Assembly (NCBI GenBank): GCA_052327205.1
Contig: CM126218.1
Coordinates: 54,126,001-54,190,000, forward strand
DNA length: 64,000 nucleotides
Reading direction: 5' to 3'
Source of the DNA: Somniosus microcephalus
Lineage: Eukaryota
In this document: piece by piece, positions 1-62,668 of the stretch
Numbering within the stretch: the stretch's first letter is position 1
Layout: each line of letters opens with the position of its first letter
The notes under the pieces: generated by a model
Databases searched by the model: none
What the model was told of the DNA's origin: nothing
The model's input: only the letters and a program-made list of their open reading frames with translations
Position numbers and translations under genes: made by a program

Positions 1-1
1 C

Positions 2-2008
2 CAGCTGGACGTTAGCCAGCTCTTGTTCCAAATCCAGACATCTTTCCTGAAGAGACTTCTTCATGTGTACCTCTGCATCCAGCTTTTTCTGGGCTTTCAG
101 CAAGTCGTTTACTAGTGACCTCATTTGTGATTTTAATACTTCAACTTCCTTTGGAGATTGATTGATCGGACTATGCAATCCCTCTACCGGAGCAGCTGTT
201 TCAGCGGTCTGTTGTTCTACATTGACGTGAGTCAGCGTACTTTTGGCATCCAATGGCTGCTCTGTTGCAGTCGTTTCAGTCTGTGTCGTCACATCAGCCA
301 TCTCAATGACTTTTGAGAGCTCCAAACCTTTTTCCTTTGAAGATCGCAGCTCGTGTTCAAGTTTTTCCCATTTCAGAGTCTTGTCCCTCAGCATATGAAG
401 GAGTTGGCTGACCGTTAACTCTTCTGACACCAGATTATGGCACGCACCTTCAGAACCTGAATCAGCTTTGATTCGTTCGGCCTCCTCGCGCAGATGGTTG
501 GTGTGCTCCTGCTCCATTTTCTCCATCAGTTGCTTCTGTTGCCTTTCCAGATTCTCCCACTCTGTAACAAAGAACTTTTTTATTTCATTCATCTCTTGCT
601 CAAAACGGCGAATCATTTGTTCTAATTGCTGTTGTAGTTTGAAATGGAGTTGAGTTCGAGCCCAGTGTCCCTCAAGAATGTGCATATCAGTAGACTTGAC
701 AGACTCAGAATTCTCTGTTAAACTATGTTGTTGTTGCTCAGTGGAATTCTGTGCTGAAACTTTGTCTTTTGCACATGGGTTGGTCTTACCATCATCAGTT
801 CTAGAGTCTGGGCTGATTATCTGCACCGAGTTCTCACTCTTTATGGCTTTTAGCGAATGCCAGTCCATATTTATGTTTCTAAACCACTCCCGGCCTAGTA
901 GTGGTGGACCTCCCTCCGGTAGCACATATAAGTCCATTATTTGACTTCCTTCACCCTTGTTGGCCACTGCAACCTTTATTGTCCCGATGGGGTACACTCT
1001 CTGCCCCGTGTAGGTTGTCAATATAATCTCCGTATCCTGTAGGGGAATATGTTGGAATAACCTTCTGTAATCTTTCTTATTCATGACTGACAATGCCGAT
1101 CCAGTGTCCAATTCCATTTTTACTTGGACTCCTTCTATCTGAAGAGTAACCCAAATTGTCTGGAGGTCTGCACCCTTACCAATGTTGAGTACCCTTAAGC
1201 TAGCCAGTTCAATACTGCTTAAGCCAGCCAGTTCATTACTGCTAGCGTCTGAATCGGACTCCTGTTCGGCCACCTTGTGTACCTTTGCGTATTTTCCTTG
1301 CGGTGACTTCTTGTTGCTGGTCTTCTTCCCTGACCTGCATACTCTAGCTATGTGTCCAAGCCTACCACAAGTTCTACATTCTTGGTTTTTAAACCAACAC
1401 TGGTTCTGATCATGCGTTGTCTTTCCACAACGATAACATTTGCCAGAACTCACACCCAATTTGTGTGCACTGAGCTCCGGTGACTGTAGCTGCATTACTG
1501 CCGTGCCTCTCGCTGCGGCTTCATGTGCTGCTGCCATAGTGACCGCCTTCTCAAGCGTCAGCTCATTCTCCTCGAGCAGTTGCTTTTGTGTATCCTGTTT
1601 AAATAAACCACACACAAATTTGTCTCGTAGTGCATCTGTCAGTCCCGTTCCAAACTGGCAATATTTCGCTAATTTACGCAATTCCAGCAAATATTCAGCA
1701 TTGCTTTCATGCTGTAGCTGCCTTCTGTCGTAAAATTTAAATCGTTCCGCTAGCATCAGCGGCGTGGGGTTTAGATGATCTTTCAGGACAGTAACAATCT
1801 CATCGAACGTCTTATCCGCCGGTTCATCTGGTGATAACAGGTGTTTCAATTGCCCGTATGTCTTCGCACCCATTAAATTTAATAATGTTAGTGCTTTATC
1901 AGCCTCACGAATTTTATTGGCCTTACAATAATTTTTAACTCGTTCAACATATATGGCCCAATCTTCAATGTCACTATCAAAGTTGCTAATATTCCCGTGT
2001 TTAGGCAT
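2..2008 (-). CDS. Gypsy (Mag-like) Gag-protease polyprotein fused in frame to STK10/SLK-like and optineurin-like coiled-coil segments; 3' end runs off the window
   Basis: Hand translation of the - strand from ATG at 2008 (in-frame TAA upstream at 2018-2020) gives 669 codons with no stop. Sequence: [33 protein letters not shown]...[14 protein letters not shown]...[11 protein letters not shown]...; zinc knuckles [14 protein letters not shown] (1438-1397) and [14 protein letters not shown] (1378-1337); protease [12 protein letters not shown] (DTG at 1108-1100) and PPLLGREWF; then coiled-coil segments. It is absent from the ORF track, probably because no stop lies inside the window. Confidence 0.92.
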
Positions 2009-2568
2009 TGTAGTACTTTATCAGATTTGCAATTTCTCAGATTTTTTTTTGTTTCACTGCTATCCAAGATGGCGGCTTCCCGCTCTTGCCGTCGTCCTCC
2101 GCCCACAAAATGGCGGTTTTCCCGTGCTTGGCGGTCTTCACCCGTCCCCCGACGCCATCTCCCTTCAGCCCCGAGTGCGGCCCTTATCTCCGCCGCGATC
2201 GATGGCCCGCGCTTTTCACCGCGGCTCTCGCGCCTTCAGTGTCTGCCGACGCTGCGCCTTTCAGCCCGAGTGCGGCCCTTATCAGGGATTGCGATCGATG
2301 GCCCTTATCTCCCGATCGCGATCGCCCTTGTACCTCCGACTTCCCCCAGCCCTGTCTTTGCAGCCAACGCTGCTCGGCTTACCCACCACCGAGGTTGAAA
2401 AAGAAGCTGCAGGATGTCTTCTGTCCTCCAGTTTTCAGTCGCTGATGGAGGCTTCAGGGTCCTAATGCCTGTCGCTTCCAGTGGGGTGGTGCGGTTTGAA
2501 ACCTCTCTTCAACGTCCTGTCTGTGGACGAAGCCGCCGTGGAATAACTGCCGCAGGGTAAGAACCTGA

Positions 2569-2578
2569 CTCATCGCCA
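2569..2578 (-). promoter_or_regulatory. Primer binding site, tRNA-Ser(GCT)-type
   Basis: TGGCGATGAG sits 1 nt after the LTR-terminal CA. It matches the TGGCGACGAG PBS typical of Mag-clade elements with one wobble position. Confidence 0.75.
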
Positions 2579-2579
2579 G

Positions 2580-2815
2580 TGTTAAGTCTGTGAATTATTT
2601 AGTTAATTAAGACACAGACTAATGAGTAACAATAAAAACAGGTCTTTACTGGTTGGAGGTAGGGACTATACTGAATACAAGATTACTGCACAGTGCTTAT
2701 ATACCGGTGTGTTCACCCCCGGTATTACGTCTACAGCAGCCTGAGAAAGTAGTACATCTCTTAAGGTGGAACAGGCTTAAGCTCTCTTAAGGTGGAACAG
2801 GTTACATACACAACA
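2580..2815 (-). repeat. 5' LTR (~236 bp)
   Basis: On the - strand it begins TGTTG and ends TTAACA, directly followed by the PBS. It contains TATATAAG and a duplicated ctcttaaggtggaacagg. The partner LTR is outside the window, so the outer boundary is inferred. Confidence 0.75.
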
Positions 2816-3689
2816 GTCATAACTATTTGTTGTGTAGAAAAGCCCACTCTGCTTTTGTGCGGGTGGTGATTGCCGGCACAAGTGTCGTTTTCTCATCCCT
2901 TCCTCACGCTACCTGGTATAAGGAAATAGAAGGACTTGAAAAATTGGGTATTTTTTTCGTTAGAAGGCGGCAGATTACGGGGCGATATGATAGTATTTAC
3001 ATTTAGGAAGAGCGGGTCTGGTGGCAAGAGGGTTGATTAAAAGCTGAATTCATGTTGTATGTTTGTAGTAATTCTGATGAGTTTTAAATTGACCTTCATG
3101 GATACAGTGTTTAGAATCCAGGCACGTATAGACTTTGTGTATTGATAGCCCGAGTTCACTGCTTGGGTGCTTTATCATAAAAGCGATGTCACACTTAAAG
3201 GTAGATTCTGTTTTTACTGATCTTATCACTCTTTTCATTAATATTTGAAATCTAGGACATCTTTGATATCTATGCAAAGTAAAATATTTCAGAGGATTGA
3301 CAATATCTCAAATCCTTAAATTATACTGCGGGAGTGAAAGACCTTGCTCATTCTACCATATTGGAGTGGGAATTAGGGGCGATTTTACTTTGCATAAATC
3401 ACTTACAAAAATTAAAATGAATCGTTTCAATTAGCATTTCAAAAATGCTGGTGAAAAATCTATCCCAACTGATTGCTTTTTTTATGCATATATCATCATA
3501 GCATTGGCGCTTTCTGTTTAATAGTGGTGTGTCTCTTTAATAGTGATGTCTGCACACACCTCAACTGAAATATCAGCAAACAAGCTGTTATCTGTTAATG
3601 ACTCTGGAAATCTGACTAAAACTTGCCCGCATAACTATGAAATCCTTGTTATATCCACTTATTAGCACTCAAGAATGTCAGTAAAAAGT

Positions 3690-3994: not shown

Positions 3995-6330
3995 GTCTAC
4001 AGCACAGAAACAGACCATTCGGCCCAACTGGTCTGTGCCGGTGTTTGTGCTCCACTCGAGCCTCCTCTCACCCCTCTTCATCTAACCCCATCAACATAAC
4101 CTTCTATTCCTTTCTCCTCATGTGTTTAACTAGCTTCCCCTTAAATGCATCTATACTATTTGCCTCAACTACTCCTTGTGGTAGCAATTTCCACATTCTC
4201 ATCACTCTCTGGGTAAAGTAGCTTCACCTGAATTACCTTTTGGATTTATTAGTGACTATCTTATATTTATGACCTCTAGTTCTGGTCTTGCCTGCAAGTG
4301 GAAACACCTTCTCTATGTCTACCTGATCAACCCTTTTATAATCTTAAAGACCACTATCAGGTCACCCCTCAGCCTTCCCTTTTCTAGGGAAAAGATCCCC
4401 AGCCTGTTCAATCTTTCCTGATAGGTATAACCTCTCATTTCTGGTATCATTCTAGTAAATCTTTTGTGCACCATTTTCAGTGTCTCTATATCCTTTTTAT
4501 AATATGAAGACCAAGGGGGAAAAATTGGGTTGGTTTGTGCCTCGCGTTAGCTCCCTCGGGGGGCGCAAACGGGGCGCAAAGCCCCCAGCGCCTGGGCACG
4601 GCACCGCTAACGCCTCCCATGAAATTCAGCGGGAGGTTAGTGGCGGTGGTAGCGCCTCTGGTGATGATGTCATCGCCGTGTGCAGCGCCCTGCTCGTGTC
4701 CCGACCGCAAACTTCGGTCGCGCCCCCGGACTTATCGCCGGACAATATGTCCGACAGGGTCAGGGTGGTGTTTTTGTGGCTGCGGCAGCGCAAATTAAAG
4801 GGCAGGTGCCGGGCAGCCATTTTTTTTTGGCCGCCTGCCAGCACCTACCCCCTTCTGCTTCTTCATGCGGGGTGCCGGCCGCGATTGGTCAGCCCGGCAC
4901 TCCCCTTGAGTGTCGGGCTGTTTTCCCAACACCTCGCTCTCTGGTGGTCCAGCAGGGCCCTGGTGTGTGCTGCGCTAGGCCCCTTCCCTTTAATCAGGGG
5001 AGGGAGGCCTGTAATACCGCAGAGTTACGTGCTGACGTGCGTGGCGCTGTTGCGCGTAACGCCGTGATAATGAATGGTAGCGCCCCTGGAAGGAGGGGGA
5101 GCGCTTCCAGTAGCGCCCAGCCTCCTGCTTGAGGCGCTACCACTCAATTTACGGAGCAGAAGTGCTAACCTTTTCGGGGCACTAAAAGTAGCGCCCTGGT
5201 GAAGTTAGCGCCCCAAAGGGGGCGCGACCGAATTTTTCACCCCAAAACTGTTCACAGTACTCCCAAATGTGGTTTAACGAAGGTTCTATACAAGTTTAAC
5301 ATAACTTCTCTGCTTTTTAATTCTATCCCTCTAGAAATGCTTTGTTTGTTTTTTATGGCCTTAACCTGCATCGCTACTTTTAATGATTTGTATATCTGTA
5401 CCCCCAGATTCCTCTGCTCCTCTACCCCATTTAGACACTTATTTTTCCAAGGTGTCTGTGGCCTCTTCATTCTTCCTATTTAAATGCACCACTTCACACT
5501 TATCTATATTGAAATTAATTTGCCAATTACACGCACATTCTGCAACTTTATTAATGTCTTCCTGTATTTTTTGCATTCTTCCTTTGTATTAACTACACCT
5601 TCCAATTTGGCATCGTCGGCAAATTTAGAAATTGTACTTCAGATTCCCAAGTTCAAATCGTTAATGTAAATTGTGAACAACTGTGGTCCCAGCACCAATC
5701 CTTGTGGAAAACCACTTCCCACCTTTTGCTAGTCTGAGTAACTACCTTTTACCCCTGCTCTCTGTTTTCTATTTTGTAGCCAGCTTGCTATCCATTCTGC
5801 TACTTGTCCCCTGACTCCACATGCTCTGACCTTAGTCATGAGTCTACTATGTTATCCTCTCCTTTATTGTCCATCTACCTAGTGTATGCCTTTTTCTTTA
5901 GTTTCAATTTTACTTTTATCTCTTTATTCATCCATGGTGTTTCATTATTGGCTAGTTTGTTCTTGTTTTTTAGTGGAATATATTTCTCTTGAACTGTATT
6001 GATCACTGTTTTAAATATTTCCCACTGCTGTTCTGTCTCTTCGCCTGCCAATTTTTTTTCCAGTTTATCTTCCCTAGTTCCATTCTCATCCCCTCAAAAT
6101 TAGCTTTTTTTCAATCTATTACTTTGGACTTTGTCTTACTTATGTCTTTCTCAATCTTATTTTGAACCTTATTATGTTATGCTTGCTATTGCCTAGTTGT
6201 TCCCCTACTTCTCTTATCTACTCTGGTTCCTTTCCCATTACTAGATCCAGCAGTGATTCCTCTCTTGTTGGGTTATTATGTACCGGGTAAGAAAGTAGTC
6301 CTGAACATACTGCAAAAACTCCATTGCCTT
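3995..6330 (-). mobile_element. CR1 LINE, fragmented and interrupted by a MITE at 4515-5243
   Basis: CR1 3' tail at ~3995; RT C-terminal remnant RGIELKSREVMLNLYRTFVKPHL (5252-5470); endonuclease-side motif PTREESLLDLVMG near 6230-6280. Confidence 0.8.
4515..5243. mobile_element. GC-rich non-autonomous DNA transposon (PIF/Harbinger-like MITE)
   Basis: Terminal inverted repeats GGGGGAAAAATT...AATTTTTCACCCC. CR1 sequence resumes on both sides. A related copy lies in opposite orientation at 62002-62668. Confidence 0.8.
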
Positions 6331-31650: not shown

Positions 31651-32427
31651 GTCGTCGTCATACGTGTCTTCACACTGTTCCCTTTGGGGAACTGTATGAA
31701 GTGGTGGAAGGATTTATGGCCGTGATTAACGCTCATTCCGTGACCGTAACCATCTTTGAACCAGCCATTAGGGCGGTTAGTGCTATGGCGGGAGGGTTTT
31801 ACGGGCTCCCACAAGCTATACAAGGAGGGGGGGCCACCCACACCCACGGACGCAAATATCCCACTGGATGTCAACCCCAGAATTTAGAGCCGGAGCTCCG
31901 ACTCCACTTGCCGGGACTGTCTGGAGCGGGGTTCAGAAACCCTACCCTGATCTGGCCCAGCGGCGGGGATCCTACCGCTATGACAAACGCCCAATCCGAT
32001 TAGCAACGTGAGATGGCAGCATAGGGCTCCAGTCACGGGGAGGGAAAAGGCGCAGGAAACGTATGGGTGTCACCTTTTGTGCGGAGTGGGCCTTTTGCGT
32101 AGCAGTAAGCATCCCCGCCGCTGGGCCAGAAGGAGTAGGGTTTTGAACCCCACTCCAGACAGTCCCGGCAAGTGGAGTCGGAGCTCCAACTTCAAATTCT
32201 GGGTGGACATCCAGCGGGATACTTGCGTCCGTGGGTGTTGGTGGCCCCCCCCCCTCAGATGGGTTGTGGGAGCCCGTAAAACCCTCCCGCCATAGGACTA
32301 ACCACCCTAATGGCTGGTTCAAAGATGGTTACGGTCACGGAATGAGCGTTAATCACGGCCATAAATCCTTCCACCACTTCATACAGTTCCCCAAAGGGAA
32401 CAGTGTGAGGATACGTACGATGATGAC
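31651..32427. repeat. Long inverted repeat (~330-bp arms, ~120-bp spacer), possibly a non-autonomous DIRS-like element
   Basis: 31651-31980 is a close reverse complement of 32099-32427, which also produces mirror ORFs in the ORF track. Confidence 0.88.
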
Positions 32428-56485: not shown

Positions 56486-57115
56486 CTCCCAATATGCCAC
56501 TCTCCGTACCTCCCAATATGCCACTCTCCGTACCTCCCAATATGCCACTCTCCGTACCTCCCAATATGCCACTCTCCGTACCTCCCAATATGCCACTCTC
56601 CGTACCTCCCAATATGCCACACTCAGTACCTCCCAATATGCCACTCTCCGTACCTCCCAATATGCCACTCTCCGTACCTCCCAATATGCCACTCTCCGTA
56701 CCTCCCAATATGCCACTCTCCGTACCTCCCAATATGCCACTCTCCGTACCTCCCAATATGCCACTCTCCGTACCTCCCAATATGCCACTCCCCGTACCTC
56801 CCAATATGCCACTCTCAGTACCTCCCAATATGCCACTCTCCGTACCTCCCAATATGCCACTCTCCGTACCTCCCAATATGCCACTCTCCGTACCTCCCAA
56901 TATGCCACTCTCAGTACCTCCCAATATGCCACTCTCCGTACCTCCCAATATGCCACTCTCAGTACCTCCCAATATGCCACTCTCCGTACCTCCCAATATG
57001 CCACTCTCCGTACCTCCCAATATGCCACTCTCAGTACCTCCCAATATGCCACTCTCAGTACCTCCCAATATGCCACTCTCTGTACCTCCCAATATGCCAC
57101 TCTCTGTACCTCCCA
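56486..57115. repeat. 24-bp minisatellite, ~26 copies
   Basis: Unit cctcccaatatgccactctc(c/a/t)gta repeated in tandem. Confidence 0.97.
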
Positions 57116-62001: not shown

Positions 62002-62668
62002 GGGGGGGAAATTGGCTCGCGCCCCCTTTGGGGCGATAATTTTGCCGGGGCGCTACTTTTAGCGCCCTGGAAAAGTTAGTACCCCCCACGCCTGAAATTC
62101 AATGGTAGCACCCCAAGCAGGAAGTGGGGCACTACTGGAAGCGCTCCCTCTCCCTCTTGGGGCACTCCCATTGAATAGAGCGGTGTTACGTGCAGCAGCG
62201 CCGCGCGCGTCGGCACGTAGCAGCGCGGTACTATAGGCCTCCCTCCCCTCATTAAAGGGGAGGGGTCTAGCGCAGCACGAACCGGGGCCCTGCTGGACCA
62301 CCGGGGAGCAGGGTGTCGGCAAAAGAACCCGGCACTCGAGGGGTGCCAGGCTGAGCGATCGCGGCCGGCATCCCACAGGAGGAGGCCAGAGGGGGCAGGT
62401 GCTGGAAGGCGGCCAAAAAAAATTGGCCACCCAGCACCTGCCCTTTAATTATTGCCGCCCCGGCCACAAAAATGCCCCCCTTACCCTGTCGGACATAGCG
62501 TCCAGCAGTAGGTCAGGGGACGCGAGCCAAGTTTGCGGCTGGGGCGCGAGCGGGGTTCTGCGCATGATGATGAATTTCGCGGGAGGCGTTAGCGGCGCCG
62601 CACCCGGGCACTAGTTGCTTTGCACCCAGGGGCTAACGGCAGGCGCAAAGCAACCGAATTTTTCCCCC
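62002..62668. mobile_element. GC-rich Harbinger-like MITE, inverted relative to 4515-5243
   Basis: TIRs ggggggaaattgg / ccgaatttttccccc; the internal sequence is collinear with the reverse complement of 4515-5243. Confidence 0.82.

Follow-up and report, generated by a model that had tools for sequence, protein, structure and literature searches.

The question raised by this locus was how a Gypsy-type LTR retrotransposon comes to carry host coding sequence in place of reverse transcriptase (RT), and what keeps that sequence in frame. Within the window, by which is meant the whole 64-kb stretch of DNA analysed, ORF reading confirmed the single stop-free frame of 669 codons (2-2008, minus strand) described in an earlier note on the locus, in which Gag-protease runs directly into host-derived segments. 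Sequence inspection and Pfam together gave the order Gag, two CCHC knuckles, aspartic protease and PKK: the knuckles (residues 191-204 and 211-224 from sequence; Pfam zf-CCHC 210-225, below cut-off) and the protease (catalytic Asp at residue 301; Pfam match 287-377, E 5e-5, also below cut-off) are followed from residue 458 by an above cut-off match to PKK (E 5e-12). Extension of the contig to the left (L016), a check that the note had proposed, yielded a full ORF of 771 aa ending just beyond the window, and 3' of it a polypurine tract, a 3' LTR of 236 bp that differs from its 5' counterpart at 3 positions, and the twin of the target site duplication (TSD) that had been suggested at 2816-2820, so defining an element of 3.63 kb with two LTRs and a 5-bp TSD. 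No RT, RNase H or integrase was detected between the LTRs, all three being found in related Gypsy elements; because of this absence the source element is classed as a non-autonomous Gypsy derivative.

The Ty3/Gypsy assignment follows from LTRs with TG...CA ends, the TSD, the polypurine tract, a presumed primer binding site (PBS), and a Gag with CCHC knuckles plus aspartic protease homologous to Gypsy Gag-Pol, the Gag sharing 40-50% identity with Gag-Pol proteins that Gypsy elements encode in one ORF; these single-ORF homologues of ~1,320 aa, named K02A2.6-like, may belong to the Mag clade. The source genome, in which the window begins at C17:54126001, is 6.4 Gb in size and its encoded proteins are closest to shark proteins. 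Elsewhere in the window were recorded a long, MITE-like inverted repeat (31651-32427; 227-nt arms at 93%, 66-nt inner arms), a 24-bp unit repeated 26 times in tandem (56486-57115; 97% matches), and two inverted copies, ~80% alike, of a GC-rich dispersed repeat (4572-5242 and 62002-62627); tRNA genes were absent from the 64-kb window. An in-frame 24-bp duplication between knuckles and protease (1194-1243) is missing from some copies of the element.

Table 1. Features of the source element, in window coordinates unless prefixed L016 (contig extension).
Feature	Position	Strand	Basis
5-bp TSD	2816..2820; twin after 3' LTR at L016:6181-6185	-	sequence
5' LTR, 236 bp, TG...CA	2580..2815; 3' LTR at L016:6186-6421	-	LTR comparison, 3 mismatches
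PBS-like stretch (presumed), one base past LTR	2568..2578	-	read from sequence
5' leader, length varying among copies	2009..2567	-	copy comparison
Gag (capsid region)	1439..2008	-	sequence, homology
Two CCHC zinc knuckles	1337..1438	-	sequence; Pfam zf-CCHC
Aspartic protease; catalytic Asp codon 1106-1108	878..1150	-	Pfam, homology
STK10 acidic linker, two pieces	663..840	-	840-762 93.7%, 765-663 89.3% vs host exon
STK10 first PKK coiled coil	462..673	-	Pfam; 95.5% and 88.2% vs two host exons
OPTN pieces	1..461	-	host exon comparison, 77-95% identity
DNAJC21-like zinc-finger piece, beyond window; stop codon L016:6693-6695	L016	-	homology

All 48 protein matches to residues 400-669 were host proteins. 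Of these, 23 were optineurins, the best at E 1e-43 with 69% identity, and 25 were kinases of STK10/SLK type, the best at E 5e-25 with 75% identity, in agreement with the identities given in the note. The expected layout held insofar as host segments follow the protease; the STK10 portion, however, begins directly after it, at window position 840, and is in three pieces, the two linker pieces (840-762 and 765-663) being parted by an in-frame deletion and a host intron being missing inside the PKK piece (462..673). The OPTN portion, equivalent to approximately residues 228-384 of P0003, consists of a short first piece (~461-435), an in-frame deletion, and then four exons joined without introns (434-1). 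Both STK10 and OPTN thus stood as captured genes, but the count of two did not, since a third host piece lies just outside the window: the last 100 ORF residues matched DNAJC21 in each of three database matches (best E 1e-3; 55% over 42 aa), a similarity weak in the window copy but clear in less diverged relatives, and the zinc ligands of the DNAJC21 finger are kept. Comparison with the host STK10 and OPTN loci, the latter located via two unique acceptor matches on C17, confirmed that both genes carry introns where the element reads straight through; the host sequence inside the element is intron-less and devoid of poly(A), as in an LTR-mediated retrocopy. At the host OPTN locus (L054, near 4635 and 5212) two A-runs each exceed those of the captured copies by one base and break the frame, reflecting either homopolymer errors or a real lesion. 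No chimeric protein was present among the 48 cargo matches or among the 120 listed of 355 further matches.

Optineurin functions as an adaptor by means of an N-terminal TBK1-binding coil, an LIR, a ubiquitin-binding UBAN and a zinc finger. The three Pfam domains seen in the optineurin matches (NEMO N-terminal, CC2-LZ and zinc finger) were all absent from the full 771-aa ORF, and the motif at P0003 185-188, which we take to be LIR-like, is present in earlier stages of the lineage and deleted in the window copy. With its TBK1-binding, LIR and ubiquitin-binding parts missing, the cargo does not qualify as an optineurin-type autophagy/TBK1 adaptor, and the proposal that it serves as a decoy for that pathway is not supported. 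A single-sequence structure model of the cargo gave four long helices joined by disordered linkers (pTM 0.26) and no folded domain, its net charge is -22, and sequence searches of the PDB with the cargos of both the window element and its neighbour returned nothing useful. Throughout the lineage the first PKK helix is retained in every stage that could be fully read. The fully read subfamilies also end in a basic cluster (L050-L053, L056, L058; L016:6696-6730), reached by three routes, namely an integrase tail, an arginine-rich variant of that tail, and a lysine-rich DNAJC21 stretch; it possibly reflects a need for nuclear localisation or RNA binding.

The origin of the STK10 portion became apparent in the parent subfamily. 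Against shark STK10 (P0023) 47 matches were scored; every one was a dispersed copy of residues 376-704, and 46 then showed a second match starting at residue 290. In the 20 loci fetched, the order was Gag-protease, STK10 386-704, STK10 292-388 and a short tail resembling the integrase end of autonomous relatives; the reversed junction was common to all 20, the ORF was unbroken in 10, and the junction occurs at 1,139 genomic places. Host splice sites were sought with genome-wide patterns comprising the left side of the junction plus a GT donor, or the right side preceded by an acceptor. A strict acceptor pattern gave 0 matches, the host acceptor being non-pyrimidine at the tested place, and a relaxed pattern located it; donor and acceptor patterns then had one match each, 6.5 kb apart on the same strand of C8, with the acceptor upstream. 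The host locus provides five exons of 135, 675, 131, 124 and 180 nt, all bounded by an AG acceptor and either a GT or a GC donor, the sum of 1,245 nt being free of stops and a multiple of three; the GC donor is that of the third captured exon (L049). The elements match these exons, spliced, at ~99%, start inside exon 2, and return to the same spot with an overlap of at most 11 nt. A junction at the exact host donor and acceptor combined with one full turn is, as judged from genomic DNA, a back-splice junction, and we infer from element DNA and host splice sites that RT switched onto a co-packaged circRNA. Transduction of host mRNA, as originally envisaged, is therefore upheld to the extent that spliced host RNA was captured; the STK10 piece would derive from a back-spliced, circular template rather than a collinear mRNA. 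The window copy has had its own back-splice junction replaced by OPTN, and only the reversed order survives as a 3' UTR remnant.

Loci that document the intervening stages were recovered with OPTN as query (L050-L053, four of 66). In L050, L051 and L053, STK10 479-615 has been lost in frame and OPTN 131 to ~425 inserted over the back-splice junction, L052 carrying a shorter OPTN than these three; in L056-L058, DNAJC21 has been added to the STK10/OPTN cargo; and in the window copy there are three further in-frame deletions, with the wrapped STK10 piece left out of frame in the 3' UTR. The intermediate stages are observed; their order would be that given here. Individual cases of microsimilarity were noted where STK10 was entered and at several of the later junctions. 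One locus (L057:11-697) has the Gag N-terminus fused in frame straight to the OPTN/DNAJC21 tail, giving a 228-aa frame. Between subfamilies the silent-site difference is 0.84 for Gag-protease as against ~0.3 for cargo, which suggests that cargo has moved between backbones. Related Gag-protease elements occur at L018, L019, L023, L026, L027, L040, L042 and L043, often a few kb from a copy, and some carry RT and integrase; these relatives have the same type of linker and the same integrase tail as the family in addition to RT/integrase. Two copies lie 7 kb apart in L027.

The element adjoining the window element downstream (L016:3-1646 plus L059:264-2201, minus strand) revealed a second case. 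Its single frame of ~1,120 codons has the order Gag-protease, STK10, P0170 1015-1047, EVI5, P0170 473-680, OPTN and DNAJC21, so that on its sequence the neighbour is a multi-host-gene element with five host genes as compared with three in the window element. P0170 is labelled ankycorbin, a name which is uncertain because the best other named match is ANKRD24, and its C-terminal exon (1015-1047) precedes residues 473-680, i.e. in reversed order. The host donor lies 11.5 kb downstream of the acceptor; the acceptor search gave 2 matches, the other of which looks like an element variant, and an alternative acceptor pattern found only a site on another contig, again apparently an element variant. 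The joined ankycorbin junction occurs at 3,173 genomic places, and at 1,292 places without the EVI5 insert. Copies of this family are likewise scattered and nearly the same in sequence, as all 40 scored matches showed, and of 150 EVI5 matches scored, many lie in frames of ~1,120 codons. Host and element DNA together indicate that the neighbour holds an independent second back-splice, from an ankycorbin/ANKRD24 family gene.

One cargo junction of the window subfamily, a search for whose other carriers the note had proposed, occurs at 1,742 genomic places (reversed-pattern control 0), controls for all four junction counts were 0, and several stages have each been amplified to more than one thousand copies. 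Positions 1-900 of the window were covered at ~100% by all 40 scored matches (1,028 candidates). Twelve copies of the window subfamily were fetched (its own and the 11 best matches): 11 show a 5-bp TSD, L022 not being readable, the ORF is unbroken in 8, and LTR pairs differ by 0-4 bases, in keeping with the recent mobility proposed in the note. At least half of the element words were held by 10 of the 23 public runs listed, under three organism labels and from four studies, one of these runs possibly being the source sample.

Expression was apparent in two RNA runs mapped to L016:5900-10000, which captured 9,775 of 16.7 million reads (X21) and 7,826 of 14.4 million (X22). Their combined depth extended over every ORF bin and was almost nil in the flanks, the profile being pooled from 101-nt reads of many copies. 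Under the usual library convention X21 favoured the sense strand by about ten to one; X22 had no consistent strand bias. Loose read ends (176 and 177 reads) matched the ankycorbin/OPTN junction of the neighbour family.

Taken together, the data make it probable that this is a non-autonomous Gypsy lineage with its own Gag-protease which took up circular RNAs and mRNAs through template switching, the captured sequence being kept chiefly for its open frame. RT and integrase would be supplied by autonomous relatives. In the initial capture RT would leave the integrase tail during minus-strand synthesis for a co-packaged STK10 circular RNA and copy one turn; the template would end as RNase H cut the entry point, and RT would return into the protease-RT linker, thereby replacing the rest of pol. 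Further switches would remove parts and add OPTN and then DNAJC21, and a sister branch would gain EVI5 together with a second circle from the ankycorbin/ANKRD24 family; several stages were amplified as recorded above. Nonsense-mediated decay acts against transcripts with early stops, and cis-packaging favours an RNA that encodes its own Gag: a single frame that stays open until shortly before the 3' LTR would shield the RNA from the former and tie the Gag-protease made in cis to the RNA that encodes it. The cargo would then be a long, acidic, helical filler replacing Pol, its individual residues weakly constrained, and the predominance of coiled-coil genes may be due in part to in-frame microhomologies among their codons.

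Estimates of dN/dS against the host genes, another check that had been called for, bear on whether the cargo instead has a specific protein function, its coiled coils dimerising Gag-protease, scaffolding the particle, or acting as decoys for host partners of STK10, OPTN or EVI5. A plain Nei-Gojobori omega of 0.27 for cargo versus host was judged too low, the value rising to 0.57 (P 0.008) for STK10 plus OPTN when conditioned on transitions/transversions, as compared with 0.32 for Gag-protease by the same measure. Polarisation, which removed codons that already differed between the host and early copies (7 of 415 in STK10), gave 0.64 for the window (236 codons, P 0.043) and 0.71 for the neighbour (189 codons, P 0.034); among single-gene polarised tests neighbour STK10 was significant (P 0.021) and three were not (P 0.13, 0.085, 0.38). 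The DNAJC21 piece, compared with less diverged copies, gave 1.0-1.8 and hence no constraint. Some selection on the frame was borne out, probably mainly as selection for openness; the amino acids of the cargo are under weak constraint (omega ~0.65, P ~0.04). A specific function would account for omega below 1, for the coiled-coil nature of all large cargo pieces and the four modelled helices, for the first PKK helix and zinc ligands being kept, and for the basic terminus attained by three routes; we nevertheless consider it doubtful, as constraint is far weaker than on Gag-protease, cargo has been repeatedly deleted and replaced, the OPTN interaction modules are missing or lost, and no folded domain was predicted.

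Neutral hitchhiking, with frames open merely through in-frame microhomology and youth, would fit the neutral DNAJC21 piece and the fact that 53-83% of the 6-8-mers shared among these coding sequences are in frame, which makes each in-frame junction weaker evidence than one-in-three; in the data of Tan et al., 14 of 17 young fly retrocopies are in frame, perhaps from youth alone (PMC5131818). Yet each of approximately seven junctions in the window element, and of a further five in its neighbour, preserves the frame, and around twelve such junctions remain unlikely even on the revised expectation. In addition, the cargo has diverged from the host by 5-12% (window) and >20% (neighbour) with no stop, the chance of which under neutrality is 0.05 for the window and 0.008 for the neighbour (host-side changes removed; both ORFs were noticed for their length), and all seven of the common indels listed from reads lie outside the ORF. 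Hitchhiking alone is accordingly an unlikely explanation.

A reversed junction by itself does not separate a circle from a linear exon repeat, and Dong et al. name other routes to it (PMC4897178). Linear RNAs with repeated exons, from trans-splicing or a lost tandem duplication, or duplication and deletion within the element are nonetheless improbable sources here: in this assembly each gene has a single donor and a single host acceptor, in both genes the two junction ends coincide with splice sites, and capture of one circumference to within 11 nt would be expected in ~2% of cases by chance on a 1,245-nt template (our own arithmetic). That the chimera is an assembly artefact or generic coiled-coil similarity has a negligible likelihood, given cargo with 77-99% DNA identity to host exons, more than 1,000 dispersed copies per junction, TSDs, recurrence in public runs under three labels and from four studies, and a public-run contig that spans the STK10/OPTN junction without a difference.

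Capture with template switching thus retained as the probable origin, the element DNA preserves both switch points and the one-turn length seen for STK10, and so offers a concrete and testable model of template switch, single turn and RNase H-limited exit, a circle having probably been taken up a second time in the ankycorbin capture. The stepwise multi-gene chimeras in a selfish ORF allow exon shuffling, and the selection of open frames in non-autonomous elements, to be studied as a natural experiment. Two practical consequences are that where large shark genomes show intron-less copies of OPTN, STK10, EVI5, DNAJC21 or ANKRD24-like genes, these may be cargo of elements and not adaptive duplicates, and that element transcripts would imitate circRNA back-splice reads in RNA-seq. 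A more far-reaching proposal, which we regard as speculative, is that the lineage prefers stable, frame-preserving circular RNAs and that multi-gene coiled-coil tails, built up by serial capture, are translated and aid particles or disturb host STK10/OPTN/EVI5 pathways; if true, it would be a high-copy exon-shuffling machine yielding new proteins in the vertebrate germline.

Among known systems, acutely transforming retroviruses with gag-onc fusions, such as avian E26 (gag-myb-ets), have helper-dependent genomes with one or two host genes fused in frame to gag at the expense of pol, but they are infectious, tumour-selected and short-lived; the shark element likewise fuses host genes to gag, and is an env-less germline element present in thousands of copies. 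The TR-GAG elements of plants are non-autonomous and gag-only, with no pol domain, from which the shark element is distinguished by its protease and cargo. Capture of genes by LTR elements has been described, as have circRNA pseudogenes; a captured circRNA lying in frame within an LTR element was not found in the literature searched, in which coverage of subscription journals was thin, circEVI5 being the only match, in a title listing, of six circRNA names. In a shark genome preprint, OPTN is among single-exon retrocopies flanked by LINEs or LTRs and treated as gene duplicates, its main text naming neither STK10 nor gypsy (10.1101/2024.09.09.611499). As described in the accessible parts of two papers, maize Bs1 is an LTR element with three host-gene pieces, shared switch points, one to five copies and one piece out of frame (PMC5131818, PMC7264820); it resembles the shark element in multi-gene capture, and those parts mention no circular template. 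The LTR-mediated retrocopies of Tan et al. (PMC5131818) comprise spliced host fragments within LTR elements, with microsimilarity, multi-parent loci (four parents at one mouse locus) and non-autonomous spread. The shark lineage is alike in its spliced fragments, multiple parent genes, secondary spread and frequent in-frame state, and differs in having >1,000 sites per junction rather than one or a few, successive stages, Gag-protease fusion and circular templates, the word start 'circ' being missing from that paper's main text. The circRNA pseudogenes of Dong et al. (PMC4897178), which include 33 mouse circRFWD2 copies with LTR-rich flanks, bear a reversed exon-exon junction as signature, their mechanism being left open. 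The reversed junction at host splice sites is shared by the shark parent subfamily and the neighbour, the window copy having lost its own; unlike those pseudogenes, the shark circle lies inside the pol of an LTR element, in frame, with both switch points visible, for two independent genes and in thousands of copies.
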